Source: an uncultured Actinomycetota bacterium (GTDB taxonomy: Bacteria; Actinomycetota; Humimicrobiia; Humimicrobiales; Humimicrobiaceae). From it: DNA of 64,000 nucleotides. Made by a program: the position numbers and the translations under genes. Where the stretch lies: contig CAZODQ010000001.1 of assembly GCA_964578625.1 (NCBI GenBank), positions 153,793 through 217,792 on the forward strand, read 5' to 3'. The notes below the pieces were generated by a model, which saw only the letters and a program-made list of their open reading frames with translations, was not told the DNA's origin and searched no databases. The stretch's first letter is position 1. Every line of letters begins with the position of its first letter. Below, piece by piece: positions 711-57,268 of this stretch.

Positions 711-725
711 AAAAATCTCTAAAAG

Positions 726-1445
726 TTACTTTATCGCTAAAAATCCTTCAAAACAAACATATTTAAACACTGTCAGTATATCAATAAAACCAGCCCTTTT
801 AAGCAAATCAATATTTCCTTGAGTTGAGAAAGGTTCTAAAACACCTTTTAAGCTCCTTGACTTAGTTATTATTTCTTTAGGTGTATAACCTTGTTCCAGC
901 TTATAATCATTATAAATGCTTGTCATCATGTCCTGGAAACGTGCATCATTTGCTCTTACTTTTTCAAACATTAAAAAAGCTCCTCCCCATTTCAAGACAT
1001 TAAAAATTTTATTAATTAACCGTTGTTTTTCACTGGGGCGGATAAACTGTACAGTATAATATGCAATTATCATATCTGTACTTTCCAGTTCATACTGGAC
1101 AATATCATCAACAAAAAAATCTACATTATCAATTTTTAATTCTTTCTTTCTTTTTTCTGCTACCTTTATCATATCCTCTTCAATATCAATTCCAATAAAC
1201 TTTGACTCAGGCTTAAGCTTATTATATTTTGAAAGCTTCAAAACTAATTCTCCTGTTGAACAACCAAGCTCATATATCAGTGAATCTTTCTTTATGAAGA
1301 AATCACTTATACTGCAAACTAATTTATGACCATCAAAGTAATATGGAACTGATTTTGAAACATGAGCAACAAAATTTTTAGCAACATCACCCTTGAAATT
1401 CCAATTAGCATTATTAACTTCCAAACCATCTCCTGCATTAGGCAC
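726..1445 (-). CDS. CmoA-family (carboxy-SAM synthase-like) SAM-dependent protein
   Basis: WNFKGDVAKNF..HVSKSVPYY, YELGCSTG, YTVQF, GGAFLMFEK and KLEQGYTPKEI..K..SL follow the CmoA pattern along the whole length. Confidence 0.8.
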   Translation of the reverse strand: MPNAGDGLEVNNANWNFKGDVAKNFVAHVSKSVPYYFDGHKLVCSISDFFIKKDSLIYELGCSTGELVLKLSKYNKLKPESKFIGIDIEEDMIKVAEKRKKELKIDNVDFFVDDIVQYELESTDMIIAYYTVQFIRPSEKQRLINKIFNVLKWGGAFLMFEKVRANDARFQDMMTSIYNDYKLEQGYTPKEIITKSRSLKGVLEPFSTQGNIDLLKRAGFIDILTVFKYVCFEGFLAIK

Positions 1446-1516
1446 TTTAATCCTCCTTGTTAAAATAAAAAAATGAAGAAGAAAATTATTCTTAATTAAT
1501 AAGAATAAGAGATTTT

Positions 1517-2482: not shown

Positions 2483-3174
2483 TTTTTTATCATAAATACA
2501 TTACCACTGATACAATCCTTAATGATATTATTTTTTAATCTCTTTAATTCTAAAAACTCATTAATAGCTTTTACAGCTCCTGGCCACTTTTCGATATCCA
2601 TTGGTTTATTATATTCATCAAAAGCTATTATTCCTCCTAAATTTACTTTATCATAAAAATAATTTATCGAATTTTTATACGATAAATATAAATCAAGGTC
2701 AAGATGTAACAATGCAATTGGACTTCCGTCATATAATGATAAACTTTCTGGTATAAAACCTTTAGCCAATATTATTTTCCTATCTATATCTGATTTAGAA
2801 ATGCCGAATTCATTTAAAGTTTTGTATACGTATTTGATATCAAACATTTTATATTCATCCATAGAATTTTCGTTAACTAAATTATCTTCATCGGTGAATT
2901 TAGGAAATCCTTCAAAAGAATCAAATCCCCAAACTAACCTATTTTTTTTATCTAATAAAGATAATAAACACATTATTGATAAAGTTATTCCCTCTCCTAC
3001 CCCACACTCTATTATATTTCCTTCTATATTTTCTATAGCTTTAAAAAGGTTGTGGAAATACAAAGATCTTCTTAGAATTTTATCATTAAATAATTTTAAA
3101 TTGGTTTTTTGTAAAGTTTTAATTTTGTTTTTATTGAACAACTTTAGGAATAATTTCTTTAGCTTCCTAAGCAT
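2479..3174 (-). CDS. TylF/MycF/NovP-family O-methyltransferase
   Basis: IEGNIIECGVGEG, WGFDSFEGFP, LLHLDLDLYLS, GGIIAFDEY and WPGAVKAINEF. Confidence 0.88.
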   Translation of the reverse strand: MLRKLKKLFLKLFNKNKIKTLQKTNLKLFNDKILRRSLYFHNLFKAIENIEGNIIECGVGEGITLSIMCLLSLLDKKNRLVWGFDSFEGFPKFTDEDNLVNENSMDEYKMFDIKYVYKTLNEFGISKSDIDRKIILAKGFIPESLSLYDGSPIALLHLDLDLYLSYKNSINYFYDKVNLGGIIAFDEYNKPMDIEKWPGAVKAINEFLELKRLKNNIIKDCISGNVFMIKK

Positions 3175-3192
3175 TTTTAACCCCCCGAATTT

Positions 3193-3999
3193 TTATTTTA
3201 ATTCTTTCCTTAAAGATTTAATAATATAATTGCAATGATCTGTCAAATCACTATCTTTTATTCTTATATACTCATTACTTAAATTATCGGAAATTATTTT
3301 TCCCATAGATGTATTAAAATTATACAGATATATTTCTCTAAAGTAATTTATTGCACCACTCTCGGTAGAATAACGCTCCCCATCAAATGCGAATAAATCT
3401 TTTATTTCTAATTCAGCAGATAATTGAAACAAAACATTTATATCATTTACATTGTTTATATAATAATCTAAATAAAATTCCCTCTTCCCTGATTTATTTA
3501 ATATTATAATTTTTTTATTTTTACATGATAAATAATTTAAATTCAAATCTAAAAATTGTATTATTCTTCTATTATAAAAAACCTCTTTAAATTTGAAATA
3601 CACAGTATCTATTACTCTTTGGAATTGTGAACACTTCGGATAGTATAATATATTTTTTTTACTAATAATTAATTCTTCAAACAATTCCCTTATTAATAGT
3701 TCTGGATTATTTAACTCATCTATATTATTTGCCCTCCCTGTAAAAATTGAAAATTTACCAGGATTTACACTGCATAAATGACTTCTTTTAACTAAAAAAA
3801 TATATTTATTATTTATAATTATAGAACCTCCACCAGAAACCCAAAAAAAAGTATTATCGTTTATTTTCTTATTGAATATTTTATCATTAACAATAAATCT
3901 CCTATTATCAACATTTCTGAGATCAACAACTAAATTATTGTCTCCCATAAAAATAGTTTTATCCCTGATTAAATTGATTATTTTAAAATATTCAGTCAA
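3193..3999 (-). CDS. Hypothetical protein with degenerate Nudix-like box
   Basis: IFLVKRS...NPGKFSIFTGRANNIDELNNPELLIRELFEEL resembles the Nudix GX5EX7REUXEE region. Confidence 0.5.
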   Translation of the reverse strand: MTEYFKIINLIRDKTIFMGDNNLVVDLRNVDNRRFIVNDKIFNKKINDNTFFWVSGGGSIIINNKYIFLVKRSHLCSVNPGKFSIFTGRANNIDELNNPELLIRELFEELIISKKNILYYPKCSQFQRVIDTVYFKFKEVFYNRRIIQFLDLNLNYLSCKNKKIIILNKSGKREFYLDYYINNVNDINVLFQLSAELEIKDLFAFDGERYSTESGAINYFREIYLYNFNTSMGKIISDNLSNEYIRIKDSDLTDHCNYIIKSLRKELK

Positions 4000-4002
4000 A
4001 AC

Positions 4003-5718
4003 TTACCTGTTAGTCATATAGCCCATTGTTGCATAAGAGCAGTTTATATTTTTTTCAAGTTCTTCTTGATTAAAAATACTCCAACCATCAAAAAATAAAA
4101 AAGGTTTATTAGTAAATTGGAGAGCTTTAAAAGTATTAAACTTATTATTTTCATAATGATTATTCATAATTAAAATTATATCAGTGTCTTTAAAACCATC
4201 ATAAATATTATCAATATAATAACACCCTAACTTTTCAATTTGATTCTTATCAACTATGAAATCTTTAACATATATATTATTCTTTTTGGGAAGCAGGTTA
4301 ATTAAGTCAACTGATACAGAATTTCTAATATCGGACGTTTCGGGAACTCCTTTAAATGCTAATCCAATTATAAGTATTTTTACATTGTTTATTCTTTTCC
4401 CTGTTTTTTTACAAAACTTCTTAATTTTATTATAAACATAATTTGCCCCAAATGAATTTATCTTCCTGCCTGCATTACTTAGAATTGCTCCTTCATTAAA
4501 CTCACTTTGGGATAAAGAAAATAAGAATGGATCTTTTGATAAGCATGGACCACCAACACCAGGACTTGGCTTAGATATAGGGTTCCTAATATAGCCATCA
4601 TTTGCTGAATCTATCAGTTTAAACGCATTTATATTATATTTTTCACATATGTAGGCTACCTCATTCGAAAAAGCGAAAGATAAATCTCTGTATGAATTAT
4701 TAACCAATTTTATTAATTCTGCTTCTTCCAAAGACTCGACATCTATTATAGCTTTTGTAATTTTATTAAATAATTTTGTAGTAAGCTCTACACTTTTCTC
4801 ATCGAATCCCCCAATAATTTGGGGTAATGTTCTCAATTCTTCTATTGCTATTCCTTCCACTGTTCTTTCTGGAGCAAAAGATATATAAAAATCTTCTCCT
4901 GCCTTATACCCATTTGATTGTAAAATTGGCAGAACTTCATTTCTGGTTGTTCCAACAGGAACAGTTGACCTAAGTATTACCAGGTCACCTTTTTTAATCT
5001 TATTAGCTATGTCTTGGCTTACTTTACGAATTTGAGACAAATCTGCAATTCTATTAGCTCTATCAAATGGTGTTCCCACACAAATAATATATATATCACC
5101 TTTATTATTATAAATATCTGAAGTAAATTGAATAGAATTCTCCTGAATAGTTGAGTTTAATAAAGAATCTAACCCATTTTCAAAAAAATGGGGCTTTCCC
5201 TTTTGTAAATTTTTTATAATATTTTTATCTTTATCTACACCAGTAACCTGTAAACCGGCATTTGACAAAACAACTGCCAGGGTTAATCCAATATATCCCA
5301 TACCATAAAGCATTATTTTTTTGTTATCTACGGTATCTTCAAAAATTTCAGAAAGTAAGACAACATCATAATAATAACCCTTGCTGTCAATTAATATAAT
5401 CTTTGAATATTTTTTATAAGGTTTATTTCTTTTTTTACATTGATCTAAAATACATTTAGCCATCTGACTTTTATCTAAATCCTTGCTTACTGCCACAGGA
5501 TTAAAATTTGCCACTTTCTCTACCTTATCATTTATACTAATCCCTTTTGAAATACCCCTCCGTATATCTCCATCGGTTAATACACCTATAACTTTATTAT
5601 CATCATTGACAACCACTGCCATACCTGCAATAAATTTATTATCATGACTCCCAGCCATTTTATTTATAGCATCTTTTATAAGAAAATCCTTTTTAATTAC
5701 ACCTTTAAACCTTTTCAT
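4003..5718 (-). CDS. Nucleotide-sugar (UDP-HexNAc) 6-dehydrogenase, WecC/TviB-like, with N-terminal CBS pair
   Basis: N-terminal GVLTDGDIRRG CBS signature, then YGMGYIGL, ICVGTP, ILRSTVPVGTT, FAPER, AELIKLVNNSYRD, PGVGGPCLSKDP and GLAFKG..TSDIRNS. Confidence 0.88.
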   Translation of the reverse strand: MKRFKGVIKKDFLIKDAINKMAGSHDNKFIAGMAVVVNDDNKVIGVLTDGDIRRGISKGISINDKVEKVANFNPVAVSKDLDKSQMAKCILDQCKKRNKPYKKYSKIILIDSKGYYYDVVLLSEIFEDTVDNKKIMLYGMGYIGLTLAVVLSNAGLQVTGVDKDKNIIKNLQKGKPHFFENGLDSLLNSTIQENSIQFTSDIYNNKGDIYIICVGTPFDRANRIADLSQIRKVSQDIANKIKKGDLVILRSTVPVGTTRNEVLPILQSNGYKAGEDFYISFAPERTVEGIAIEELRTLPQIIGGFDEKSVELTTKLFNKITKAIIDVESLEEAELIKLVNNSYRDLSFAFSNEVAYICEKYNINAFKLIDSANDGYIRNPISKPSPGVGGPCLSKDPFLFSLSQSEFNEGAILSNAGRKINSFGANYVYNKIKKFCKKTGKRINNVKILIIGLAFKGVPETSDIRNSVSVDLINLLPKKNNIYVKDFIVDKNQIEKLGCYYIDNIYDGFKDTDIILIMNNHYENNKFNTFKALQFTNKPFLFFDGWSIFNQEELEKNINCSYATMGYMTNR

Positions 5719-6400
5719 TAATTAAACCCTCCAACTCATTGAAAGTATTGATTTCAAAAATATTAAAAATTGAATATTTCTTTGATGTTCTGTTAATTAA
5801 GATAAAATCAACTTCTGCATCCCTGCTTAATTTATAATCATACAGATCATCACCAATAAATAGAAATTTTTCACTCCTGCAGCCAGTATTATTTTCTATA
5901 GATTTAAAATGGCTTTTCCCCTTCGTAAAATTATTTTCCGTTCCAAACACTCCCTTAATATTTTGCCTTAAATCTTTATTTAATTTTTTTGAAGTAAAAA
6001 AAATTAATTCTTCTTGGGGCATCGACGAAGAAATGAAAATATCTTTTTTATTTTTTACTAATAAATCCAAAAAGGATCTCGCGTCCTTGAAAATTTCTGC
6101 CTTTAATAAATTAATTTTATTTAATATGGAAAAATTTTTATTAAAGTTTGAATATTTTATTATGCTGCTATTAACATCTACTTCCCTTAAAATATTTTCA
6201 AATAAAGTCTTTCGCGGTAAACCCGAGTATTTTTCATATAGAAATTTAATCCTGCTTCTAAACATACAATCATTAACTCCAAAACCAATTAGTTTAGTTA
6301 TAGTTTCTATGAAATTTTCAACCTTAATATCCATAGAATCAATTATCGTTCCATCCCAGTCAAAAATGAAGATTTCCTTATTTTTTAAATTTAACTCCAT
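5705..6400 (-). CDS. HAD-superfamily hydrolase/phosphatase
   Basis: IFIFDWDGTIIDS (motif I), ISSS (motif II) and FIGDDLYD (motif IV). Confidence 0.85.
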   Translation of the reverse strand: MELNLKNKEIFIFDWDGTIIDSMDIKVENFIETITKLIGFGVNDCMFRSRIKFLYEKYSGLPRKTLFENILREVDVNSSIIKYSNFNKNFSILNKINLLKAEIFKDARSFLDLLVKNKKDIFISSSMPQEELIFFTSKKLNKDLRQNIKGVFGTENNFTKGKSHFKSIENNTGCRSEKFLFIGDDLYDYKLSRDAEVDFILINRTSKKYSIFNIFEINTFNELEGLINEKV

Positions 6401-7940
6401 GAATTAACTTCTTTAATAAATCTTTAATTCTTAAAAACTCCGCTACCTTCTTTAAGAAACTGTAAATCAAATTTTTTAAATATACAAATCCCTTTTCAAT
6501 TTTAAAACAAAATGGGAATATCCTAACTAAAAAATATAGAAATGCGTTCTTATTATATAAAAAGTTATAATCAAACAATTTTAAAAGTAACTTGTCCACC
6601 TTCCAGATTTTCTCTTTATTTAGATTATTAAAATTATACTTATTTATGTATTCTTCAAAAGCCTGCCTGGAAGGCAGCCTTTTATTTAATTCCTTAAACA
6701 TTACATCATCTAAGTTACAAAAGGAATTTGATTCAGCAAATCTATAAAGAGATGAACCGGGATATGGATAAGCAAATCCAAAACTGAAGACTATTTTTGT
6801 GTTTTTAATAAACTTTATTGTTTTTCTAATAGAATCGTAATTTTCTCCAGGCATATTTAATATAAAAGAACCACCAACAGTTATTGAGGTATTTTTAAAA
6901 TCATTTAAAATTTTATAATACCTCTCAACCGTAGTTTTTTTATTAAAACTTCTCAGCATTAAATTGTCTCCCGATTCAAAACCAAATCCTAATATAATGC
7001 AGCCGCTATCTTCAAGTAATTTAATTGTTTCCTCATCGTAATTGAAATCTGCCCTTGAAAGAGGTATATAAAATACTATTAATTTCCTGTTAATTATTTC
7101 GTTACAAAATTCTTTAACCCATTTTCTAGTAGATAATGTCAATGATTCTGTAAAATTAAAGGCATTGACATTATAAGCTTTCATTAAGTATTCCATATGA
7201 TCAACTAAATATTGAGGAGAAAAATTTCTTCTCATTAAATTCGCAGCTGCACAAAAATTGCATCTGCCGTAGCACCCTCTACCTGAAGTAATTGATGCAA
7301 GCCTTAAATTTCCATTTTTGCTATATTTTTTTATCCTTTTAATTTGAGATTGTTTTAAAGGGAAATCATAATTTTCCGGCTTGACATCCAAAATATAGTA
7401 TTCCATATCAAATAAATCATAAGCAGGAAAGGGTAAATCATCTAAGTACTTGGGAAACTCAAGGGATGGATTTTCAATATAATTACCTTTTTTATCCAAA
7501 TAACTTATACCAGGGATATTAATGATTGATTCATTATTAATAATAGCTTTTACGAAATCTGCAAGCATTAAATCAGCTTCTCCTCTAACAACATAATCCA
7601 CTTTTGTATTTCTTAGTATATATTCAGTGGTATATTCTGCCCAGGCCCCTCCTGCTAGTTGAACTACTTCAGGTAATTCTTTTTTTATCCCGGCTGAAAC
7701 TTCTTTATTAAAAAAAGATGCTTGTATAAATCCAGTCATTCCTACTATCTTCGGTTTTTCTTTAATAACTCTTAATACAACTTCTTCGCTATTTAGTTCT
7801 TCTGCACTTGCATCAATTACGGATACATTTATACCATTATTTCTTAGAATGGAAGAAAGCGTAGCTATCCCATGTGAAAAACCACTATACCCAAAACCAA
7901 AAGGATTTAGAAATATAATGTCATGTGCTGTATCTTTCAT
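6378..7940 (-). CDS. Cobalamin-binding (class B) radical SAM enzyme
   Basis: N-terminal B12-binding domain (GIATLSSILR..G..V.VID, AGGAWA, VRGEAD), SGRGCYGRCNFC CxxxCxxC motif, GFESG and NMPGE. Confidence 0.88.
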   Translation of the reverse strand: MKDTAHDIIFLNPFGFGYSGFSHGIATLSSILRNNGINVSVIDASAEELNSEEVVLRVIKEKPKIVGMTGFIQASFFNKEVSAGIKKELPEVVQLAGGAWAEYTTEYILRNTKVDYVVRGEADLMLADFVKAIINNESIINIPGISYLDKKGNYIENPSLEFPKYLDDLPFPAYDLFDMEYYILDVKPENYDFPLKQSQIKRIKKYSKNGNLRLASITSGRGCYGRCNFCAAANLMRRNFSPQYLVDHMEYLMKAYNVNAFNFTESLTLSTRKWVKEFCNEIINRKLIVFYIPLSRADFNYDEETIKLLEDSGCIILGFGFESGDNLMLRSFNKKTTVERYYKILNDFKNTSITVGGSFILNMPGENYDSIRKTIKFIKNTKIVFSFGFAYPYPGSSLYRFAESNSFCNLDDVMFKELNKRLPSRQAFEEYINKYNFNNLNKEKIWKVDKLLLKLFDYNFLYNKNAFLYFLVRIFPFCFKIEKGFVYLKNLIYSFLKKVAEFLRIKDLLKKLIHGVKFKK

Positions 7941-7957
7941 TTTAATTCATATAAATA

Positions 7958-9262
7958 TTATCTTATCTTTACCGGTTTTTCCCAGAAATAAGGCAATTTT
8001 ACAACACCTAAAAAAGAAAAAGACCAGTGAGGATTGTTATAGTTTTCAGGATTTGCCTCAATGATGAAATGCATAGCATTTTTTATGCCATCCTGCAAGT
8101 CTGGGGCATATATGCTTAAATTGGCATTATATTCTCCCGGTCTTAAATAATTAGGATCTATAATAATTCTTGTGTTATATTCACCTGGTCTTAACTCAAA
8201 TTCAAAAATGTCCGAAAGTGCTGAAAATACTGGCATTTCCAGCATATTCTTCGTTACAAAAGCAAGTTCAAGAAAATTTATTTTCCTGGTGACTCTAAAA
8301 TCTATAGAGAAAATAATTTTTTCTCCTTCTTTAAAAGCACTTTTGGAGTTATTATTATTTCCTAAAATTTTTCCACCTATGAAAAATACTTTGGTATTTT
8401 TTAAATTTATTTTGCTTTCAGGCCGTTTATAATTAGTATAATCGTAATTCCCATCTTTAAAATTTAAATCATTAGTCATACAGGTGCTTAGGTACATATT
8501 TACCACTTTATCAGTTTCATCAAAAGCAGCCATTTCACCGTTTTTTAGCAAAATACATTTCTCAGTTAAATTGCTTATTGCCGCCATATTATGACTTACA
8601 AATAAAACAGTCCTTCCTTCACTTTTTGATGCATACTCCATTTTCCCCAAACACTTTTTTTGAAATTGCGCATCACCTACTGATAAAACCTCGTCTACTA
8701 TTAAAATTTCCGGACTTAAATATGCTGCAACAGCAAAAGCTAACCTCACATACATACCTGAAGAGTATCTTTTAACCGGAGTATCAAGAAATTTCTCTAC
8801 TTCCGCAAACTCGACAATATCCTTAAACTTAACATTAATGTCTTTTTTTGACATTCCTAAAACTGCACCATTTAAATAAATATTCTCTCTTCCTGTTAAC
8901 TCAGGATGAAAACCTGTACCTACTTCCAGTAAACTTGAAACCCTACCACAAATTGTTGCTTTACCCTCTGTTGGTTCAGTAATTCTGCTTAAAATTTTTA
9001 AAAGTGTAGATTTACCAGCACCATTTTTACCTATTATACCTATCCTCTCACCCTTTTTTACCGAAAATGAAATATTCCTCAAAGCCCAGAATTCTTCTTT
9101 TATTGGCACAACAATATAATTATTTTTATGACCCTTAAAAATCTTTAAAAAGATTTTTTTGGATTTTTCATATATCTCATCTCTTAAAGTACTATAATTA
9201 CTTTGTTGATGTCTTATGATGTATTTTTTGCCTAAATTTTCAACTTTGATTGCCGTTTTCAT
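7958..9262 (-). CDS. wzt: Polysaccharide ABC transporter ATP-binding protein with Wzt C-terminal domain
   Basis: [49 protein letters not shown] and VSHN, plus a C-terminal beta-rich extension. Confidence 0.93.
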
Positions 9263-9266
9263 AAAA

Positions 9267-10100
9267 TTATATTCTATCTACAAATGTCCTTTCAGTCTTT
9301 CTAAAATACCATACTCCTATAAATAATAATATTGTTATTATAACAACAGAAAAAATTATACTTAATAATAAATAATTTGTCTGGGTTCCAAAAAAAGCCC
9401 ATCTAAATCCATCTATTATACCCACCATAGGATTTAAAGAATATATAACTCTCCATTTTTGAGGAATTACGTCACTGCTAAAACCTACAGGAGAAACATA
9501 AAGACCAAATTGAATCATAAATGGGACAATATACTGGAAATCCCTATATTTAACATTTAGAGAAGAAATTAAAAAACCTACACCGAGAGATAACAAAATA
9601 GCGAGGATTAAAAATAATGGTATAGTGACAACTTTCCAACCTGGTACAAATCTATACCAAAACATTAAAATTATCAATATTATAAAAGAAATTGAAAAAT
9701 CTATAAATGCAACAATTATGGAACTTGCAGGAACTATCATTCTTGGGAAGTATACTTTCGAAATCATTCCAGCATTACTGACAAGACTACCGCCACTGGA
9801 TTGTAAAGCATTGGCAAAAAATTGCCAAGGCAATAAAGCAACGAATACTAAAATTGGATAAGGCACGTTGTCTGAAGGCAATTTTGCAATTTTCCCAAAA
9901 ATAATTGTAAATACTATCATGGTCAATATAGGTCTTATTATACTCCAGGCAATTCCAATTACTGTTTGTTTATATCTGACTAAAATATCTCTCCATGATA
10001 AGAAAAAAAACAATTCCCTATATGCCCATAAATCAATTAAATATTGTTTTTCATGCTTTCCGGCTTGAATTACTGTTATATTTTTTTTAATTTCCTTCAT
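9267..10100 (-). CDS. wzm: Polysaccharide ABC transporter permease
   Basis: [32 protein letters not shown] and [12 protein letters not shown]; directly upstream of wzt. Confidence 0.93.
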
Positions 10101-10164
10101 GTAATTTATTGCTTAAACATTAAATATAATTTAATAATCTACAGCTGAAAATTAATATCTTAAA

Positions 10165-10192
10165 ATTATAAAGATTTATTTTTCTAGGTCAA
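10165..10192 (-). promoter_or_regulatory. Putative sigma70-type promoter of the wzm-wzt-modification operon
   Basis: Minus strand reads TTGACC-N16-TATAAT, ending 65 bp upstream of the wzm ATG. Confidence 0.55.
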
Positions 10193-10253
10193 ATACTTTT
10201 ATCTGACTGGCATTGCTTTAAACTAATTTTAAAAATTGATATATAGGAACTTT

Positions 10254-11564
10254 TTAGGAGTATTTCTGTAATTCATTCTGAAAATTAAATCCGATAGCCA
10301 AAGAAACTAGCATTGAAACAGGTATCATAACTGTAGTAGCTGATAAATAATTTTCAAAAAAAGAAATAACCAAAAGAATAAAAATGCTACCGATTGCAGA
10401 AAGAAACACCTTTTTATTAAAATCCTTTTTTGAATTATTATAATAATTCAATAATTTTACTAAACATAAAGACCAGAATAGCATTACAAGACCTAACCCT
10501 ATCACTCCAGTTTCTGTAAGAAATTGCAGATAAGAATTGTGTACGTGTCCACTATTATAATAAAAATTATTTTTCATATAAAATACAATAAAACCAGGAA
10601 AACCCTTTAGTCTTCCCAAGTCAAATAAATTCCAATCTATACTAAATATATCATTAAACCTGCCAAAACCCACTCCAAATAGTGGGCTTTGTGAAAATAG
10701 ATACCACGCCTTTTCCCATGTAAAAAATCTGATAACCGATGTACCCTCTCCAAATTGAAATATCTGAATAAATCTATGGTATACTCCCGTAAAATAAATC
10801 ACCGGGATTGATCCTAATATTAATATTCCTATAGTAATCAAGAATTTTTTTACTGATCTGTAACATAACCAGATAACAATTATAGAACCTGCAATAAAAC
10901 CTAGATAATTAGCCCTACTTTTTGTAAGAAATAATGCTGTTAAATTTATAATCAGCAACACTGCATACAATATTTTTAATCTCTTTTCTTTTTCTATCAG
11001 AAAAAAGACAAGTAAAAACATACAAGTTATAGCATATACTGAGCCCGTAGCATTATGTGCAAAATTAAGGGCAAAATAAACTTTACCAACGTCAGGTTCT
11101 GTATATACCATCAATGACAAATTACTCTGAAAGTACTCAACAATACCAAATATAGAGAATGTGGTAAAAATAACAAAAATAAATTGAAAATAATAATTTG
11201 CTAATTTTTTATAATTATAAGCCGGAAGCGCAAATGCAAAAAAAAGAATATAGCAGAAAAAGAAATTGCCATCAAACTTTAAAAATTGAAAAGATAGCAA
11301 GTTTAGAAACCTTTGACCTGAAACAAAATAGCTTAAAATAAAATAAACGTAAATTATTATCAAAATTGCAATTAACTCAGAATGGGAGGAAGTTACAGAT
11401 CTTTTTCTAATAAAGAAAATTAAACCAATCAATATAGAAATTAGAACTGATGAAATTAAAAAATACGGATATTTATTAACCAGTAAAAATAAAACAGGTG
11501 AAATAAGTAATATACAAGAGATTTTTTTGATTATTAATATAAATCTTTCTTTCAAGCTGAGCAT
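10254..11564 (-). CDS. O-antigen ligase / O-oligosaccharyltransferase (Wzy_C) family membrane protein
   Basis: Many TM segments, LTKSRANYLG, R...WEKAWYLFSQSPLFGVGFG and HVHNSYLQFLTETGVIG. Confidence 0.85.
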   Translation of the reverse strand: MLSLKERFILIIKKISCILLISPVLFLLVNKYPYFLISSVLISILIGLIFFIRKRSVTSSHSELIAILIIIYVYFILSYFVSGQRFLNLLSFQFLKFDGNFFFCYILFFAFALPAYNYKKLANYYFQFIFVIFTTFSIFGIVEYFQSNLSLMVYTEPDVGKVYFALNFAHNATGSVYAITCMFLLVFFLIEKEKRLKILYAVLLIINLTALFLTKSRANYLGFIAGSIIVIWLCYRSVKKFLITIGILILGSIPVIYFTGVYHRFIQIFQFGEGTSVIRFFTWEKAWYLFSQSPLFGVGFGRFNDIFSIDWNLFDLGRLKGFPGFIVFYMKNNFYYNSGHVHNSYLQFLTETGVIGLGLVMLFWSLCLVKLLNYYNNSKKDFNKKVFLSAIGSIFILLVISFFENYLSATTVMIPVSMLVSLAIGFNFQNELQKYS

Positions 11565-11600
11565 CTCAATTATACTGTATGTTGTCTTATTGCTTATTAA

Positions 11601-12713
11601 TTATATTGCCTTATTTTTATAGTCACTATACTTGTAATTTATAAAATTCATTATTTTTTTCTTAAAAATATCTCTATCAAATCTTAATGCATTTTCTCTT
11701 ATTTTATTTCTATCAAAGCTGCTTTCAATTTTTAGAAACCTTTTTACAGTCTCTATAAGAGCATCTTTTGAGTTCTTGCTAAAGAATAAACCTGTTACTC
11801 CGTCTAAAACAGTTTCAAGCGCTCCACCATCAGCAAAAGCAATAACAGGTCTCCCATTTGCCTGGGCTTCAACAGGTGTTATTCCAAAATCTTCTTTGCC
11901 TGGAAATATGTATGCTCTACACTTACTATAGATCTCCTTTAAGCTTATATCATCAAGTCTTCCTAAAAATTCTATATTTTTGTTTTTGACCATACTCTCA
12001 AGAGTTTTTCTGTAAGGACCTGTTCCAACTATTTTCAAATTCAAACCCAAATCATTAAAAACATCAATTACAAGGTCGATATTCTTATAAGCATTAAGAC
12101 GTGACACTATTAAAAAATAATCTTCAGTTTTACTTGCTATACTAAAATTTTTAACATTTACTGGAGGGTAGATTACCTCTGCTTTCCTATTATAACAATT
12201 CTTTATTCTTTCTTTTATATAATTTGAAATGGCTACATAATAATCAACCCTGTCTATTGTTGCAATATCCCATCTTTTTAATTTCTTTATTAGCAATGGC
12301 AATATTTTTCGGGTAAACTTTCCAAAATCTTCCTTTTCAACATAATTTTTATAATTCCAGACAAACCTCATCGGAGTATAGCAGTAACATATATGACATG
12401 CATCTTTATCTTTTATCGCTCCCTTTGCAAAAGCGCTACTACTGCTTAAAATAAGATCATAACCACTCAAATCAAAACTCTCAATTGCTTTTGGATAAAA
12501 TAACAGATACTTCTTAAAATGCTTATCTAAGAAAGGAAACTTCTGCATGAAAGATGTCCTTATATTCATCTGTCCGAATATTGGAGGTAACTTATCCTTA
12601 TCAAATATTGAAGTAAGTATTGAAGCAGTGGGAAAAAGCTCACTAAAAACCTCTATTACCCTTTCTGCACCACCATATTGATTTAAGTAATCATGGACTA
12701 TGGCTATCTTCAT
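11601..12713 (-). CDS. GT4 glycosyltransferase (WbaZ-like mannosyltransferase type)
   Basis: MKIAIVHDYLNQYGGAERV, CYCYTPMRFVW, VIYPPV and EDFGITPVEAQANGRPVIAF. Confidence 0.9.
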   Translation of the reverse strand: MKIAIVHDYLNQYGGAERVIEVFSELFPTASILTSIFDKDKLPPIFGQMNIRTSFMQKFPFLDKHFKKYLLFYPKAIESFDLSGYDLILSSSSAFAKGAIKDKDACHICYCYTPMRFVWNYKNYVEKEDFGKFTRKILPLLIKKLKRWDIATIDRVDYYVAISNYIKERIKNCYNRKAEVIYPPVNVKNFSIASKTEDYFLIVSRLNAYKNIDLVIDVFNDLGLNLKIVGTGPYRKTLESMVKNKNIEFLGRLDDISLKEIYSKCRAYIFPGKEDFGITPVEAQANGRPVIAFADGGALETVLDGVTGLFFSKNSKDALIETVKRFLKIESSFDRNKIRENALRFDRDIFKKKIMNFINYKYSDYKNKAI

Positions 12714-12732
12714 AAATTCCCTGTTGTATTAA

Positions 12733-13623
12733 TTAGTTATTATCTGAAGTCTTAAAATGATTTACAACAAAAGCTGCGATAATCCCAATTACTGCAGATG
12801 CTATAAAACTTAATAAAATATTTCTTAAATAATTAGAAGTATTTACTACACCATCAAGTTCTGGCGGTTTATTTATCTGTATCCTATTTATAAAATACTC
12901 CTCATTGTCCAACATATTATTTTGTATTGAAGTAAGAAATACATATTTATTATATTCTTCATCAAATTCTTTTAAGAGTAGAGTGTCTTTTTCATTTTTT
13001 TCCAAATCACTTACTAGATCTGAAAGTAGTCTTTCAGTAACACTAATTTCAATCTTCAGTTTTTCAACCACAGAATCATAAGCTTCCTTGCGTTCTTTAA
13101 CCTTTACATCTATATATGAATCCAAGATAGCCTTATTAATGCCATATGCAAGTCCCTTTGTTTTTGCATAGGTTGTCAGTGTGACAATTCCATTCCACCT
13201 GTCTATTGTAATGTTTACTGATTTAATTAATTGTGATTTTGTAAAATCATTATTAGTAAACTCATCCTTTAGCAAATTTATAGCATCACTGATCAGTGGC
13301 TCAGATTTAATTTCTGAATCAATGGGATCTAACTTTCCTACTATATAATCTATTCTCTTTTCGTTTTCAACTCGAGGTATTATCCATAAACTGTTTGCTT
13401 CATCTGGAAGATATTCATAAAATTCATCATTATAATAAATTTCATTATTGGATAAAGTTATTTGAGAAACTGAACTGTATTCAGGGGAAACCAGAAATGT
13501 ATAAGCCATACCAATAATAAAAACTAAAATAAAAGCAATAATAAAAGCTGATTTTCTTTTAATTAAAATTTTAAAAAATACTTTTAAATTGACTTCATCA
13601 ACATTTTGATTCTTTTTGTCCAT
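12733..13623 (-). CDS. Wzz/polysaccharide co-polymerase-like membrane protein
   Basis: N-terminal EVNLKVFFKIL plus TM plus P.Y.S.S motif, a central coiled-coil region and a C-terminal TM helix. Confidence 0.7.
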   Translation of the reverse strand: MDKKNQNVDEVNLKVFFKILIKRKSAFIIAFILVFIIGMAYTFLVSPEYSSVSQITLSNNEIYYNDEFYEYLPDEANSLWIIPRVENEKRIDYIVGKLDPIDSEIKSEPLISDAINLLKDEFTNNDFTKSQLIKSVNITIDRWNGIVTLTTYAKTKGLAYGINKAILDSYIDVKVKERKEAYDSVVEKLKIEISVTERLLSDLVSDLEKNEKDTLLLKEFDEEYNKYVFLTSIQNNMLDNEEYFINRIQINKPPELDGVVNTSNYLRNILLSFIASAVIGIIAAFVVNHFKTSDNN

Positions 13624-13882
13624 TAAAATTCTAGTTATATTTTACAATTCTATATTGATAGTTTCTTTTACTTTTAGCATGAATAAATTATCAATTAAAT
13701 GATTTTAAAAATCAAGAAATTTAAATTACTTATATATTTATGTAAGGAATTTTTTAAAAAGCATTCTTGCTTTTCTATAAAAAATTTTTTGATGATATAA
13801 TAAAGCGTTGATGCTTTCAATCTTTTCGAAAGGCTAATATTTTTGTTAATTAAGATATTCTCAGAATCAAGGATTAAAAAAT

Positions 13883-14608
13883 TTGGATTTGTTTCTTAGT
13901 ATAATTATACCCGCATATAATGAACAAAGATGCGTCGGAAATACATTAGATAAGGTTCTGGATTACTTTAGAAATAAAAAGTACCCCATCGAAATAATTT
14001 GTGTAAATGACGGAAGCAATGACAATACACTTAATATAATAGAAGAATACAAAAAAATAAATTTCAATAAGGTTGACATGAAAATAATTAATAATAAAAA
14101 TAATTCAGGCAAAGGTTATTCAGTAAGAACAGGAGTTTTGGCCTCCAATGGGAAATATGTATTATTTACCGATGCGGACCTCTCAACACCAATAGAAGAA
14201 GTTGATAAGTTTCTTAGAATTATTGAAGAAGGTTATAATGTAGTCATAGGCTCAAGAGATTTACCAGGCTCAAATATTATTCAGAGACAGCATATCATTA
14301 GGGAATCAATGGGAAAATTTTTTAACTTTTTGGTAAGAATAATAATGAACTTTAAATACAGGGATACTCAGTGTGGTTTTAAGCTCTTTGATAGAAAGTC
14401 AGCTAATAACATTTTTCCTAAGTTAAATATAAATGACTTTAGTTTTGATGTAGAAATTTTATACCTTGCAAAAAAGTTGGGATTAAAAGTTAGGGAAGTG
14501 CCTATAACCTGGAACAACTCAAAAGATTCAAAGGTCAGGATAATTAGAGATTCGTTCCGAATGCTCTTAAGCTTGATTAGAATAAAAAAAATTCACAAGA
14601 AAATATAA
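13883..14608 (+). CDS. GT2 polyprenol-phosphate glycosyltransferase (dolichyl-phosphate beta-glucosyltransferase family)
   Basis: LSIIIPAYNE, VNDGSNDNT, GKGYSVRTG, FTDADLSTP, DTQCGFKLF and FSFDVEILYLA; TTG start. Confidence 0.9.
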   Translation: MDLFLSIIIPAYNEQRCVGNTLDKVLDYFRNKKYPIEIICVNDGSNDNTLNIIEEYKKINFNKVDMKIINNKNNSGKGYSVRTGVLASNGKYVLFTDADLSTPIEEVDKFLRIIEEGYNVVIGSRDLPGSNIIQRQHIIRESMGKFFNFLVRIIMNFKYRDTQCGFKLFDRKSANNIFPKLNINDFSFDVEILYLAKKLGLKVREVPITWNNSKDSKVRIIRDSFRMLLSLIRIKKIHKKI

Positions 14609-14618
14609 TCCTTTGCCT

Positions 14619-18414
<3,796 letters not shown>

Positions 18415-52491: not shown

Positions 52492-53757
52492 TTATAGAAT
52501 ATCTAAACAGTAAATCCGCCAGGTAAAAGCGACTTTACCCAATTTGGAAATAGGATTTACGATATCCAGATTTATGTCCGCAAGCTGTGAACCCGAAGCA
52601 TACTTAAATCCTAAGTTGACTGCATCCGTATTTATCTTTGAATATATTTTGGATTCTATTCCGGCTCTCCTATATTCCTTTTTAATACCCAAGATCAGTG
52701 ACCTGAATCTTGTGTATCCTTTAGTTTTTAGCCTCTTCCGTACTAGGTTAAAGATCTTAATATCCCTGACCAGATCCCTCCGGCTTAAGAAGCGCTTTGA
52801 AGGCATATACTTCTGCCCGTCGTCAAAATCATAAATTATCTCGTTTATATCGGGAAAATTTACCGATACTCCTATAGGCTCCCCATTCTTTTCTATAATG
52901 AATATCAGCTCTTCCATAGATATGGCCTTTATGCCCATTGCCAGATAATTGAATTCCGCATCGGTCAATCTTACCTGCTGGGGATGCTTTTCGGTGTCCC
53001 AGATGTCATTATAAAGCTCTCTTATTCTCTTAATCTCATTTCTGTAATCCTTAAAGTCAGCACACCTTATATTTACCCCGTCAAATTTACTTCCGTTTTT
53101 ACTGGAGATCTTAAGCAGAATTCTTTCAACCCTGTCCATATAATTCTTACTGATATCACTATCAGTTACTATACTGTACCAGTCATTTTCCTTCCTAAAA
53201 CCGTACTGCTCAAAAAACTCCTTATAATACGGAGCATTATACGGCTCCATAAAATAGGGCACGTTTTCAAACCCGTCTATAAGAAGCCCTACTTCTCCTC
53301 CGGCATTGAACTTTGCAGGGCCTATTATCCTGCTGCATTCGTACCCCTTTAGATAATCAATCGCACTACCTATCAGCATATTTGCAACATCCTTATTTTC
53401 AATAGATTCAAATAGACCCAGCCATCCAAACCTGTCATTGTATTTCTGGTTATAGTTGTAATCTATAAAGGACATTACTCTTCCCACAGGCCTGCCATCG
53501 TCATAAGCAATAAAGAATTTGATCTGCGCATGGTCAAAAAAGGGATTCCTGCCGATTATTCCCGGTAATCTAAAAGATGTGGGATTCAGAGATTCAATTT
53601 CCTGGATAAAAAGGGGAAATACTTTCTTTGACTGTCCGCTACTATACCAGTCTATATAATAGGGTACGATTACGAATTCTTTCAGCCTGTTTAAGTTTAA
53701 ACTGTTAAAGGAACCCGGCCTGTATTCACCAAGTTCCCTTATATGAAATCCTGGCAT
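52492..53757 (-). CDS. GNAT-fold protein of the YghO-like family
   Basis: NPFFDHA, GRPVGR, FGWLGLFE, GLLIDGFE..PYFMEPYNAPYY, PDINE and ILGIKKEYRRAGI. Confidence 0.72.
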   Translation of the reverse strand: MPGFHIRELGEYRPGSFNSLNLNRLKEFVIVPYYIDWYSSGQSKKVFPLFIQEIESLNPTSFRLPGIIGRNPFFDHAQIKFFIAYDDGRPVGRVMSFIDYNYNQKYNDRFGWLGLFESIENKDVANMLIGSAIDYLKGYECSRIIGPAKFNAGGEVGLLIDGFENVPYFMEPYNAPYYKEFFEQYGFRKENDWYSIVTDSDISKNYMDRVERILLKISSKNGSKFDGVNIRCADFKDYRNEIKRIRELYNDIWDTEKHPQQVRLTDAEFNYLAMGIKAISMEELIFIIEKNGEPIGVSVNFPDINEIIYDFDDGQKYMPSKRFLSRRDLVRDIKIFNLVRKRLKTKGYTRFRSLILGIKKEYRRAGIESKIYSKINTDAVNLGFKYASGSQLADINLDIVNPISKLGKVAFTWRIYCLDIL

Positions 53758-54006
53758 ATATACCGTAGAAATCTCCTTATTGTAAATAGAGGTAATTATA
53801 ATCTATATTGCGGGGCTTCTCAACCGAAAAAGGAGATAATTTTTAAACTAAAGTGGTTATGGGATAGTTATAATTCAAAGTGGTAATCTAAGTGTTAAAA
53901 TTTCGAATCAGTTTTTAAGTAAAATTCTTAAATTAAGGAGTATAATTAACTGATTCTTAGTATTTTTCAATTATAATTAAATACTATATATAGTAAGTAG
54001 AAATTA

Positions 54007-54960
54007 CTATTTACCGATGTCAACTTCAATTTCTGCTATATTTAGCTTCTTTTTATTAATCCAAACAAAACCTTGATTTGGCGTAATCACTACTACATCT
54101 ACAGGACCCCCTACACCAGGTATATCTCCTGGATTACCTCTTATACCATCAGAAAATCGTTGAATAGCTGAAGTAGTCTGAATCATTAAAACACAAAAAT
54201 CAATTGCATCTTGAAGAGTCATTGTACCCCATTGGATGACATATTCTAAATTTCTTAATTGTTTATTAATCTCGTTTTGCCCTAGCTTCTGAGTTGATTC
54301 TCTAATAAAATTTATGTTTCCAATTCTTCCATCAAATCCTAAAACAATTCTAGAGACTACGTCAATTTGGCCAGACCAAGTAGCACCATATTCCTTTCCC
54401 TTTTCAGCACTACTCCTTTTTCTTTGAATTTCACCAGGAATATGACACATATAAACTTCATGACTACCATCTTCATTATATCCAGCAATTAGAAGATTAA
54501 TCATATCTACTCCGCCGGCTCCTTCTTTTATCTGGTCCTTTTGATCTTTAAAGCGGAATTTAATAATATATCCTTCTTGTTTTATTTCTAGAATTTCACA
54601 TCCTTGTTTCTGTAAATCGCTTCTTATTTTATCAGGTAATTTTTTTAATTGTTCTTGATAATTGTATTTTTTATCAAACAAATAATAAAGCTTCTCAGCT
54701 GTTTCTTTTACACTTAACTTTTGTATATCAACTTTAGTTTTAAACTCATCGATAAACTTACTAATATTCTTCATTACTCCATCTTCTGGTAAGAAAGCAA
54801 GCCCAGTAATAGCTAAACCTACTCGTTTATTAATCTGAAAAAGTTTAGATGCATTATCAGAGCCAATTCTAGCCATACCTTTTCTATTACGAAAAGATTG
54901 CCTACTATCTGCTGCAAGTACAATTCCTTCTGGTGTAGTTGTATTAATTGCTAAAGACAT
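54007..54960 (-). CDS. Proteasome-beta/HslV-like Ntn hydrolase (N-terminal Ser nucleophile)
   Basis: (M)SLAINTTTPEGIVLAADSR...SKLFQI..VGLAITG matches the T1-D17-K33-G47 layout; LLIAGY; C-terminal MTLQDAIDF...VGGPVDVVVIT. Confidence 0.8.
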   Translation of the reverse strand: MSLAINTTTPEGIVLAADSRQSFRNRKGMARIGSDNASKLFQINKRVGLAITGLAFLPEDGVMKNISKFIDEFKTKVDIQKLSVKETAEKLYYLFDKKYNYQEQLKKLPDKIRSDLQKQGCEILEIKQEGYIIKFRFKDQKDQIKEGAGGVDMINLLIAGYNEDGSHEVYMCHIPGEIQRKRSSAEKGKEYGATWSGQIDVVSRIVLGFDGRIGNINFIRESTQKLGQNEINKQLRNLEYVIQWGTMTLQDAIDFCVLMIQTTSAIQRFSDGIRGNPGDIPGVGGPVDVVVITPNQGFVWINKKKLNIAEIEVDIGK

Positions 54961-55948
54961 AATTAGTAAAATTATTATTAATTAAATTTGGAAAATTACT
55001 AGAAATATCTCTTAATAATATTCTATCGTTTGATTGAATATTGGTTTTTGTAATATCAACTATGAAAAAGATTCTTAAATCATTTTTATCTTTATCGGTT
55101 CTCCTCGACCAATAAAGAATCTCACCACTCTTTTTTAATGCACCACCATATATTGGGAAATCTACACAATTAGACAATGATTTAAGTTTTAATCTCATTC
55201 TTTTTATAAAATTTTTAACAGCCTTTTTACTTCTAGAGATGGAAAATAACCTAAATTGACCTGTATTATCGATATAATTAATATCTTCTGTGTTACCATA
55301 CTCTTGACCAAAACGAAAAAAATGATTTGATGAAGAACCAGACCATATTACCTCGTATAATGGGTGTTCATCTAGTATTGTATATCCATTAGTATCATCA
55401 AGAATTGGTATTTTTGGTGTTACAATTAATACATTGTAATTTTCAATAAAGTATTTTTGAGTTGTATCATATAATCCATCAAAGTTTGATTTCTCAGCAA
55501 CAAATTGAGTCCTATTATAAGAATTATATTCTTCAGTCCTATTTTGGCTCTGTAATGAAATAATCTCACTGCTATCAATAATAGTCTTACTCAAATTAGA
55601 AATTTTACCATAATTTATGGTAATACATTCAGAAGTTTCCCATATAGAATTATTTTTTTCATCAGAATATATAAAATCTAGATTTTGTTGCATATTATCA
55701 AAATAGTTTTTTTCTCTCTCTATTTCTTCAACAATTTCAGGTTTTAAAGTTATTGCTCTAGGACAATGATGTTCTCTTTTTAAAAATCCCTTTTTTCCTA
55801 TAGCATCCAATAGGTCTTTAACAGTTTGCTTAGAGAAAACACCAAGTTTTTTTGCAAGCTCAGCCAAAGAAGGAGTTATTCCTTTTTCTCTTTGCCCTTC
55901 ATAGATTAATTTTATTACTTCACGTTGTCTATCTGTTAATTGTTTCAT
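54944..55948 (-). CDS. LexA-type winged-helix DNA-binding protein with unrecognised C-terminal domain
   Basis: LTDRQREVIKLI......GITPSLAELAKKLGV.SKQTV...L..I.KKGFLKR....PRAI is the LexA N-terminal domain pattern. No Ala-Gly cleavage site or S24 Ser-Lys motif is visible downstream. Confidence 0.75.
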   Translation of the reverse strand: MKQLTDRQREVIKLIYEGQREKGITPSLAELAKKLGVFSKQTVKDLLDAIGKKGFLKREHHCPRAITLKPEIVEEIEREKNYFDNMQQNLDFIYSDEKNNSIWETSECITINYGKISNLSKTIIDSSEIISLQSQNRTEEYNSYNRTQFVAEKSNFDGLYDTTQKYFIENYNVLIVTPKIPILDDTNGYTILDEHPLYEVIWSGSSSNHFFRFGQEYGNTEDINYIDNTGQFRLFSISRSKKAVKNFIKRMRLKLKSLSNCVDFPIYGGALKKSGEILYWSRRTDKDKNDLRIFFIVDITKTNIQSNDRILLRDISSNFPNLINNNFTNYVFSN

Positions 55949-55981
55949 ATTTCTATTATAACTAATTCGTAATTCTTTAAA

Positions 55982-56009
55982 ATTATACCTGAAATAAGTC
56001 AGGTGTCAA
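55982..56009 (-). promoter_or_regulatory. Consensus sigma70 promoter containing a palindromic operator
   Basis: Minus strand reads TTGACA CCTGACTTATTTCAGG TATAAT. Palindrome ACCTGA-N6-TCAGGT at 55987-56004; the -10 ends 33 bp before the ATG at 55948. Confidence 0.85.
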
Positions 56010-56050
56010 GTAAAATATTTATAATTATTGTTATTTTAGAGTGATCTTAC

Positions 56051-57268
56051 CTATTCCTCTTTCCCAAAGAAATAATCTATCAGCTTATATCCTTCCTTAA
56101 AATACAGGCCTGTATTCATGGCCCTAAACTCATCGAATCTTTTATACTTCCCGCCGGCTGACTTTGTGCTGTCATAGATAAGAAACGGCACAGGTTCTGA
56201 TGTATGAGTCTTCTTCCTTATAGGAGTGTAGTGGTCGGGAAGTATCATCATCTTATAATCAACCTCTTCTTTATCCATATTTTCCTTTATGACTCCTATG
56301 ACTTCCCTGTCTATTATCTCTATTGCCTTCACCTTATTCTCCACATCTCCGTGATGGCTGCATTCATCTGCAGCTTCCAGGTGAATATATACGAAATCCT
56401 TTCCCCCTATAAGCTGGCTTACAGCGGCATCAGCCTTGCCGCTAAAATTGGTATCAATATTTCCGGTTGCACCTTCTACCGTGACCGGTTCGAGCCCGGC
56501 CAAAACACCGATGCCTCTTATAAGGTCTACGGCCGATATTATTGAACCCCTTAACTTATATTTTCCGTAGAAGCTGTCCAGATTGGGCTTTTTGCCTTCT
56601 CCCCATATCCATATCGAATTTGCAGGTCTCATGCCGTCTTTCACCCTTTTCCTATTTATAATATGATCTTCCAGCAGGGCAATGCTCTTTACTATCATTC
56701 CCAAAAGTATATTCTCGCCCGGACCCTTGGGCAAGAATTCGGCGATCTTCTTACCTGTTATGTCATGAGGCGGGGTCAGAATATTCCTGTCTGGACCGTC
56801 CTTCCATACTATTATATGCCTGTAACTTACTCCTGGGTAAAACCTGATACTCTCAGTCTGAAGCTTGTTTTTGATATCCCTGATAAGTATTCTGGACTTG
56901 TCGGTAGGGATCTCTCCCGCACTGTAGTCTATCATGACTCTATCTGTATAATCATATTCTTTAGATAATGTGACCAGATTGCACCTGAATGCTACATCCT
57001 TCTCCAGAAGATTAATGCCCATACTTGCAGCCTCAAGCGAAGCGCGGCCAGTATGATATTCTTTAGGGTCATACCCTAAGACTGACAGATTTGCAACATC
57101 GCTTCCGGGCGGCATTCCATCGGGAACAGTTTTGGCTGTCCCCATTTCGCTGTCTTTGGCAAGTCTGTCCAAAACCGGTGTTTTCGCATACTGCAGGGGA
57201 GTCTTATTTTTAAGTTTCCCTATCCTGTAATCCGCCATCCCGTCTATTATTATTACTATATATTTCAT
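56051..57268 (-). CDS. apgM: Cofactor-independent phosphoglycerate mutase ApgM family (possible homoserine phosphotransferase)
   Basis: IIDGMAD, KTPLQ.A.TP, PGSDVANLS, GRASLEA, PPHDI, SAVDLIRG, HLEAADECSH.G and PDHYTP...TH. Confidence 0.88.
   Translation of the reverse strand: MKYIVIIIDGMADYRIGKLKNKTPLQYAKTPVLDRLAKDSEMGTAKTVPDGMPPGSDVANLSVLGYDPKEYHTGRASLEAASMGINLLEKDVAFRCNLVTLSKEYDYTDRVMIDYSAGEIPTDKSRILIRDIKNKLQTESIRFYPGVSYRHIIVWKDGPDRNILTPPHDITGKKIAEFLPKGPGENILLGMIVKSIALLEDHIINRKRVKDGMRPANSIWIWGEGKKPNLDSFYGKYKLRGSIISAVDLIRGIGVLAGLEPVTVEGATGNIDTNFSGKADAAVSQLIGGKDFVYIHLEAADECSHHGDVENKVKAIEIIDREVIGVIKENMDKEEVDYKMMILPDHYTPIRKKTHTSEPVPFLIYDSTKSAGGKYKRFDEFRAMNTGLYFKEGYKLIDYFFGKEE

Follow-up and report, generated by a model that had tools for sequence, protein, structure and literature searches.

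In the LexA/DinR systems, a repressor with a LexA-type DNA-binding domain acts on an inverted repeat that has a 4-bp centre and lies over the repressor's own promoter, the GAAC-N4-GTTC-type SOS box known as the Cheo box. Pairs of a repressor and a dedicated protease are found in mobile elements and stress systems such as ImmR/ImmA (ICEBs1), DdrO/IrrE (Deinococcus) and CapH/CapP (CBASS); in these pairs the repressor is of XRE type and the protease is a metallopeptidase. On the enzyme side, the 'proteasome homologs with multiple insertions' (PMI), among them PMI-3 and PMI-4, were described by Fuchs, Alva and Lupas in 2021 (PMC8665760), with Thr1/Ser1, Asp17, Lys33 and Gly47 as the catalytic set. 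In the parts of that article that deal with genomic context, its authors report having found no informative context for these proteins.

The locus analyzed here, which encodes a regulator with a LexA-type winged helix and, behind it, an Ntn hydrolase, lies in a stretch of 64,000 nucleotides that we call the window (Table 1). It resembles LexA/DinR in its LexA-type domain and in the inverted repeat with a 4-bp centre over its own promoter. It differs from LexA/DinR in that it lacks the self-cleaving S24 domain, a regulon and any link to recA/uvr, its arm reads CTGAC rather than CGAAC, it forms a mobile cassette, and a real LexA is encoded in the same genome. With the ImmR/ImmA-type pairs it shares the organization of a small, sporadically occurring mobile operon with a putative HTH repressor, whose own promoter carries a candidate operator, and a neighbouring peptidase, but it combines a proteasome-fold Ntn hydrolase with a LexA-type protein. 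A literature search returned no paper on a LexA-domain/proteasome-homologue pair or on the dyad motif described below, and the hydrolase family was covered only by the 2021 catalogue (PMC8665760).

Table 1. Positions of the promoter, the candidate operator and the cassette genes in the window
Feature	Position	Strand	Remarks
sigma-70-type promoter	55982..56009	-	-35 TTGACA 56009-56004; spacer 56003-55988; -10 TATAAT 55987-55982
candidate operator, 18-bp dyad ACCTGAC-TTAT-TTCAGGT	55987..56004	.	arms kept and centre free in the window and five orthologue loci
33-nt leader	55949..55981	-	no Shine-Dalgarno sequence; second TATAAT 55960-55955, 6 nt before the ATG
regulator gene, 334 aa	54944..55948	-	LexA-type winged helix (residues 1 to ~70) and orphan C-terminal ~260 aa; no transmembrane segment
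proteasome-fold Ntn hydrolase gene (PMI type), 317 aa	54007..54960	-	overlaps the regulator gene by 17 nt
low-GC insert (cassette), approximate	53848..56045	.	contig divergence, other cargo in same-genus genomes, GC dip

The promoter and its palindromic spacer

Read from 56009 to 55982 on the minus strand, the window contains TTGACA, CCTGACTTATTTCAGG and TATAAT. The promoter scan scored 12 of 12 consensus bases for this site, with a spacer of 16 nt, and it was the sole hit of this quality between 54000 and 58000, where 17 promoter-like sites were listed in all (15.2 ± 3.6 after shuffling of the same region). A perfect promoter alone is not rare in this genome, since TTGACA-N16-18-TATAAT was found at ten sites in 1.62 Mb, as against about four expected from base-composition arithmetic. 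Only one of the ten, namely the window promoter, has a GC-rich palindromic spacer. The ATG of the winged-helix gene (55948) follows 33 nt downstream of the -10 box.

Counted with one base from each hexamer, the final A of TTGACA and the initial T of TATAAT, the dyad reads ACCTGA-N6-TCAGGT (56004..55987). The sequence-only reading of this stretch had reported a perfect TTGACA/TATAAT promoter, a dyad that fills its spacer and touches both hexamers, and AT-rich surroundings. All three were recovered here, the GC content being 0.29 in 54001-56000 as against 0.38-0.41 in the flanks on either side. The half-site that it had given is present as written, but the dyad is better written ACCTGAC-N4-GTCAGGT, which is also the consensus of the family (see below).

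Conservation of the promoter-dyad block

Twenty-two homologues of the regulator were found, with identities of 46-61% and lengths of 317-343 aa. A metagenome scan for the regulator gave six loci, five of which (L027, L028, L029, L031 and L032) have DNA upstream of the start codon and formed the comparison set; L030, which has none, was not counted. The regulators of the five loci are 48-60% identical to that of the window in full-length matches, which are partial in L031 and L032. The five loci do not represent as many independent lineages, since the promoters of L029 and L032 are nearly the same and the dyad centre of L027 is also that of L031. L028 and the uncounted L030 encode identical proteins.

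The upstream regions of orthologues had been chosen beforehand as the place where the claim of an operator could be refuted, and a comparable dyad was found in all five of them, in the arrangement TTGACA-(0-2 nt)-CCT[G/T]AC-N4-GTCAGG-TATAT directly before the ATG. In the six-way alignment with the window the -35 TTGACA and the GGTATA part are unchanged in 6/6 regions, and the invariant columns are TTGAC, ACCT, AC, TCAGGTATA and ATG. The four bases of the dyad centre vary (TTAT, ATTT, AGGC or CTAT), and the DNA upstream of the -35 box cannot be aligned among the six loci. It is this conservation in five of five orthologue upstream regions that decides, at the level of sequence comparison, that the dyad is functional and not a product of chance. 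Arms that are kept and symmetric, a free centre and unalignable upstream DNA together make up the footprint that would be expected of a site for a dimeric HTH protein. L029 has 2 additional nt separating its -35 box from the dyad; the junction between the dyad and the -10 box is unchanged in spite of this, which would also speak for an operator.

Two features would count against an operator. The site is rarely a perfect palindrome because of T-for-G changes in the arms: the right arm of the window copy begins with T instead of G, and four of the six copies, none of them that of the window, have T for G in the left arm. A perfect palindrome (8+8) was seen in L031. Furthermore, CCTGACA, the left half-site, is similar to the -35 hexamer, and promoter function instead of contacts with a repressor could account for some of the conservation.

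This resemblance, together with arms that abut both hexamers and with one contig (a single one) from a related sample that breaks at 56004, at the edge of the dyad, would suit an explanation without any dedicated repressor, in which the block either is promoter architecture only, with a spacer that RNA polymerase favours, or serves the cassette as a site of recombination or as a structural element. We consider this explanation unlikely. Between genes of only 50-60% identity a sigma-70 promoter does not normally keep its spacer sequence, symmetric arms around a free centre are the pattern of a dimer site, the gene directly downstream encodes a DNA-binding protein that is conserved to a matching degree, and the boundaries of the insert lie about 40 nt outside the dyad.

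As a separate observation, the -35 region, ACTTGACA, differs from the operator half-site, ACCTGACA, by one mismatch only, and thus the half-site motif occurs three times in the promoter, twice in direct and once in inverted orientation. In the RNA folds of the orthologues the -35 copy of the motif pairs with the right arm.

These folds are also relevant to the possibility that the hairpin serves apgM, the gene upstream, as an intrinsic terminator. The scan lists a hairpin of 6 pairs, 3 of them G-C, with the tail ATAATTTTAA, 47 nt after the apgM stop codon, and the RNA fold has -7.2 kcal/mol with a z of -2.97. However, the element moves with the cassette and is found elsewhere behind a TdeIII endonuclease gene, a DUF4209 gene or tRNA-Gly; four of the five orthologues have an uncompensated mismatch in the arms, and their best RNA folds use another helix; and a U-tract is present in no copy, the tail in the window being AUAAUUUUAA. 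On these four grounds (cassette travel, uncompensated mismatch, other helices, no U-tract) a terminator was rejected, and we regard it as the most improbable of the explanations.

The position between the -35 and -10 boxes is also the one where activators of the MerR type bind, and the winged-helix protein might in principle activate or remodel the promoter from the spacer rather than repress it. MerR-type promoters have overlong spacers of 19-20 nt, whereas the promoter here already has consensus hexamers and a spacer in the near-optimal range of 16-18 nt, and the domain is of LexA type and not of MerR type; activation from the spacer is therefore highly improbable.

We conclude that the dyad is probably an autorepression operator, through which the LexA-type winged-helix protein of the cassette shuts down the promoter of its own gene. 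The regulator would bind as a dimer to the two 7-bp arms, ACCTGAC and GTCAGGT, whose centre-to-centre distance of 11 bp places both on the same side of the helix. Since the arms fill the spacer between the consensus -35 and -10 boxes, the bound dimer would exclude RNA polymerase, and the outcome would be a tight negative autoregulation of the two-gene operon of regulator and Ntn hydrolase, which travels as a small mobile unit. That the binder is the cassette protein, that binding means repression and that something relieves the repression are three steps that we infer from the sequence. That the hydrolase may be strongly inducible, as the sequence-only reading suggested, is a further such step. 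The domain, which is LexA-like by sequence, profile and fold, and the frame, which the dyad shares with the host LexA box (see below), would both favour autorepression.

The region between promoter and gene is less conserved in length. About 23-25 nt of the window leader are missing from the orthologues, in which only 8-10 nt separate the -10 box from the ATG; given this distance, the orthologue mRNA is probably leaderless. No Shine-Dalgarno sequence precedes either cassette gene, and such sequences are present before the neighbouring host genes.

The regulator and the question of an SOS function

The sequence-only reading had taken the first gene of the cassette for that of a LexA-type regulator, which proved correct for the winged helix only. 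Pfam LexA_DNA_bind (PF01726) matched residues 1-65 over all 65 model positions (E 1.1e-14). An hhalign comparison of 23 family members with eight host-type LexA proteins gave a probability of 98.5% (E 1.7e-15) over 68 N-terminal columns. In a wide structure search, which covered residues 1-87 only, the best matches of the modelled N-domain (VIA-align) were the LexA structures 3k2z (Thermotoga, Z 10.5) and 1leb (the DNA-binding domain of E. coli LexA, Z 10.4). The S24 peptidase domain of LexA was not found: no further Pfam domain was detected in the regulator, PF00717 (S24) being without a match at E <= 0.01, the hhalign match stopped at column 77 with no part of the LexA C-domain aligned, and the NCBIfam lexA model (TIGR00498) reached 48.1 bits, over residues 1-71 only, as against a cut-off of 110.95.

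The C-terminal ~260 aa are an orphan. Their profile found only 11 cluster representatives among 1.84 billion, and a search of the ESM Atlas with residues 76-334 gave a best score of 0.83, under the lead threshold of 0.9. A transmembrane segment was not detected in the regulator (maximum 19-residue hydropathy 0.66). The AlphaFold model is poor, with a mean pLDDT of 53.7 and values below 50 for residues 87-194, and it lends no support to a dimerization that would take place via the orphan domain. In the window and in a subgroup of the family (P0005-P0008, P0010) the regulator ends in a tail of about six residues (YV[FI]SN), which in the window overlaps the start of the hydrolase gene (54944-54960); in the other family members the stop codon lies 1-2 nt before the hydrolase ATG.

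A genuine LexA of 209 aa is encoded on another contig of the same genome (L043, G000:C8:61000-63500; lexA at 760-1389, minus strand). Upstream regions of lexA were compared in the host and its relatives (loci L008-L026; 4 dropped by the ORF filter, 1 without upstream DNA, 15 counted). A GAAC-N4-GTTT box was present in 13 of these 15, 46-89 nt before the start, and the cassette-type dyad in none of the 15. The full host-type box reads GCGAAC-N4-GTTTGC and is followed by the extended -10 sequence TGTTATAAT; since the host lexA promoters use it, this lineage reads such -10 boxes.

Could the dyad itself be a host SOS box, bound by the genuine LexA, so that DNA damage induces the cassette? Mobile elements are often wired to host LexA, and the dyad has the frame of the host box, with arms 4 bp apart. 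Aligned as 5-bp cores around N4, however, the two sites read CTGAC-N4-GTCAG and CGAAC-N4-GTTTG, with two of the five core bases different in each arm, and the recognition helices are unlike, SSSATVHSHLKKL in the host LexA as against FSKQTVKDLLDAI in the cassette regulator. The dyad was absent from all of the lexA promoters counted above, and it moves with the cassette into unrelated contexts, whose hosts need not share LexA specificity. A host SOS box was rejected on motif and portability, and we hold it to be very unlikely. The recognition-helix residues Q41-T42-V43-K44-D45 of the cassette regulator are unchanged in 23 of 23 family members, and this invariant helix matches the invariant arms of the dyad.

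A regulon of the cassette protein was not found either. Within the window, CCTGA-N6-TCAGG has one exact copy, and three sites were found with at most one mismatch, as against 0.94 expected; the whole 1.62-Mb genome has two exact copies (reversed control pattern, 0), of which the second lies inside an alpha/beta-hydrolase ORF. The longer form, ACCTGAC-N4-GTCAGGT, occurs with at most one mismatch at one site in the genome, which is the window promoter, and with two mismatches at three sites, as against 1.4 expected; the one such site that was inspected (window ~11080) is inside an ORF. There is no second intergenic copy of the dyad in the 1.62-Mb genome, and hence none upstream of recA/uvr. With one site at up to one mismatch in the genome and GAAC-N4-GTTT in the host lexA promoter instead, an SOS regulon was rejected.

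The sequence-only reading was right that the motif is unlike both CTGT-N8-ACAG and GAAC-N4-GTTC. Its suggestion of a LexA-type box did not hold in the sense of a regulon, in view of the missing S24 domain and of the genuine LexA with its own GAAC-N4-GTTT box elsewhere, and the genome scan for sites at recA/uvr that it had proposed gave no other intergenic copy. Because the regulator has no S24 domain, the host has a separate LexA and no second intergenic dyad exists, the dyad is most likely a candidate autoregulatory operator of one operon, and the tempting annotation of the regulator as a second SOS repressor is to be corrected. A possible resemblance to a LexA motif of the form 'CCT-N10-AGG' in a magnetotactic bacterium found no confirmation in the literature search and carries no weight here. 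The account of LexA in PMC8565304 lists 17 reported motifs and describes duplicated LexA domains or paralogues as readily changing their motif, which would fit a LexA-derived domain that has a site to itself.

The hydrolase and the mobile cassette

The 317-aa hydrolase has a weak match to Pfam Proteasome. Foldseek with its model (pLDDT 70.6, pTM 0.71) placed proteasome alpha and beta subunits on top (E ~1e-6), and a PDB sequence search with the hydrolase alignment A2 (25 sequences) gave a best E of 0.1. A2 shows D18, K39 and G53 without variation and Ser at position 2 (Thr in 1 of 25); as read from the alignment, position 2 Ser/Thr, Asp18, Lys39 and Gly53 would correspond to the catalytic set Thr1/Ser1-Asp17-Lys33-Gly47 given in PMC8665760. 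The model has a six-strand, beta-rich insertion (122-183) after two long helices (H1/H2), and four helices at 200-270 that are extra in the H3/H4 region. Homologues fell into 1,494 clusters at E <= 0.001, the best 120 of which were all 71-91% identical. The source labels include Patescibacteria, Atribacteria, Desulfobacterales and a Korarchaeota bin, labels of few-kb contigs being weak evidence of the host.

The predicted proteasome fold, the catalytic residues and the strong conservation across phyla are shared with PMI-3/PMI-4 (representatives OGZ26396.1 and HDY66466.1) as these are described in PMC8665760, and the additions seen in the model may correspond to the PMI insertions after H1/H2 and between H3/H4. 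The protein is a putative member of the PMI type, a name that is used here for likeness to those descriptions. It differs from the PMI homologues, for which the passages on genomic context in PMC8665760 give nothing informative, in that the window gene follows the gene of a dedicated regulator, whose promoter has a conserved candidate operator.

The two genes keep their order. The hydrolase gene starts within -17 to +2 nt of the end of the regulator gene that precedes it, in the window and in all four loci long enough to show this, two of which (L028 and L030) encode identical proteins. Identities between paired loci are 49-77% for the whole regulator (N-domain 68-87%, C-domain 43-74%) and 78-89% for the hydrolase.

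Contigs of related strains in other samples part from the window at ~53840-53847 and at ~56046; contigs of the four DNA runs cover the cassette only in fragments and were used for these divergence points alone. The window flanks of the insert are apgM and a GNAT-like gene (56051-57268 and 52492-53757), and the gap between the two is variable in the genus, with 2.2 kb in the window, 2.9 kb in G001 and 5.6 kb in G004. In G004 (L040, G004:C5:22800-31300) an ORF reading of the gap gave an ankyrin-repeat protein, two toxin-antitoxin-like pairs (RelE/ParE-like and nucleotidyltransferase-type) and a permease with an ArsR-type regulator. In G001 (L039, G001:C3:60600-66400) it holds a papain-like peptidase, a membrane protein and an inverted, solitary hydrolase gene (L039:3272-4222, minus strand; 68% identity), which has neither a regulator nor an upstream dyad. 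The G001 hydrolase departs from A2 at 6 of 110 invariant columns, the leave-one-out range among the 25 alignment members being 0 to 6. Three of the changes, R24L, G28R and A30T, fall in the loop that follows the first (nucleophile) strands, and the other three at further invariant columns; they could reflect divergence or loss of function.

Elsewhere the cassette has other neighbours. A TdeIII restriction endonuclease gene lies upstream in L028 (1-699, E 1e-67), a DUF4209 gene (341-2143) next to a LexA-like gene fragment (2-247, minus strand) in L031, and tRNA-Gly(tcc) 191 nt upstream (2736-2809) in L032; in L029, tRNA-Gly was identified by sequence. These neighbours hint at a location in islands or defence neighbourhoods.

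The occurrence of the cassette is patchy. A full-length regulator match was found in none of 60 relatives, the unpublished G044 and G060 included (none of 58 without these two), 55 having an N-terminal match only. The hydrolase was found in two of 401 genomes sampled from the phylum, both of the genus of the window. Four further loci from the regulator search of genome contigs matched residues 1-68 only, with 32-34% identity, and were read as ordinary LexA genes. No relative of the hydrolase was found in viral contigs with the single protein or with A2, and a tblastn search of phage and plasmid records gave no match to the cassette. ACCTKAC-N4-GTCAGGTATA did occur in viral contigs, in 11 stretches, none of which adjoins TTGACA; they fall into few groups sharing flanks, are coding-like and were taken as unrelated. 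The operon is thus a low-GC, sporadically distributed, mobile two-gene cassette in a variable apgM-GNAT hot spot. Another part of the window, 1-18000, also has a low GC content (0.26-0.31, as against 0.35-0.42 in the rest) and may be another acquired region.

How repression would be relieved can be considered by analogy. LexA cleaves itself, and repressor/protease pairs are known (see above); in the same way the regulator could be a target of the hydrolase encoded alongside it, its cleavage by that enzyme being pure conjecture. Alternatively, regulator and hydrolase could behave like a toxin-antitoxin module. In type II toxin-antitoxin systems, too, the DNA-binding component is encoded by the first of two closely linked genes and the promoter contains a palindromic operator; the first cassette gene evolves faster, as the identities given above show, and toxin-antitoxin-like pairs occupy the same hot spot in the sister genome G004. 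On the other hand, the cassette proteins, with ~320-330 aa each, are far above the size of typical pairs, and PADLOC gave no significant match for the pair (only a weak match at the wHTH level for the regulator, CARF3, E 0.0023, and none for the hydrolase). The sister species, moreover, has a hydrolase alone, and this solitary G001 gene argues against obligate pairing.

A more specific version of relief by the hydrolase is a 'split LexA', in which the S24 domain has been exchanged for an orphan sensor or substrate domain and the repressor is inactivated or held in check by a PMI-type hydrolase. We put this forward tentatively, as a possibility that is rather unlikely to be right. If true, the cassette would form an autorepressed switch that is complete in itself and moves horizontally, perhaps as a module for addiction or defence, and would offer the first substrate and the first regulatory logic for the PMI proteasome homologues.

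An operator in the promoter spacer is a textbook design and the element itself is ordinary; by its sequence it appears to be a new operator motif of familiar design in an uncharacterised LexA-domain family. Its value is that of an experimental handle, as the promoter-operator is short, clean and conserved, and its consensus boxes should work in E. coli. It may serve as an entry point to an orphan family of proteasome-like enzymes that is tightly coupled to its regulator.
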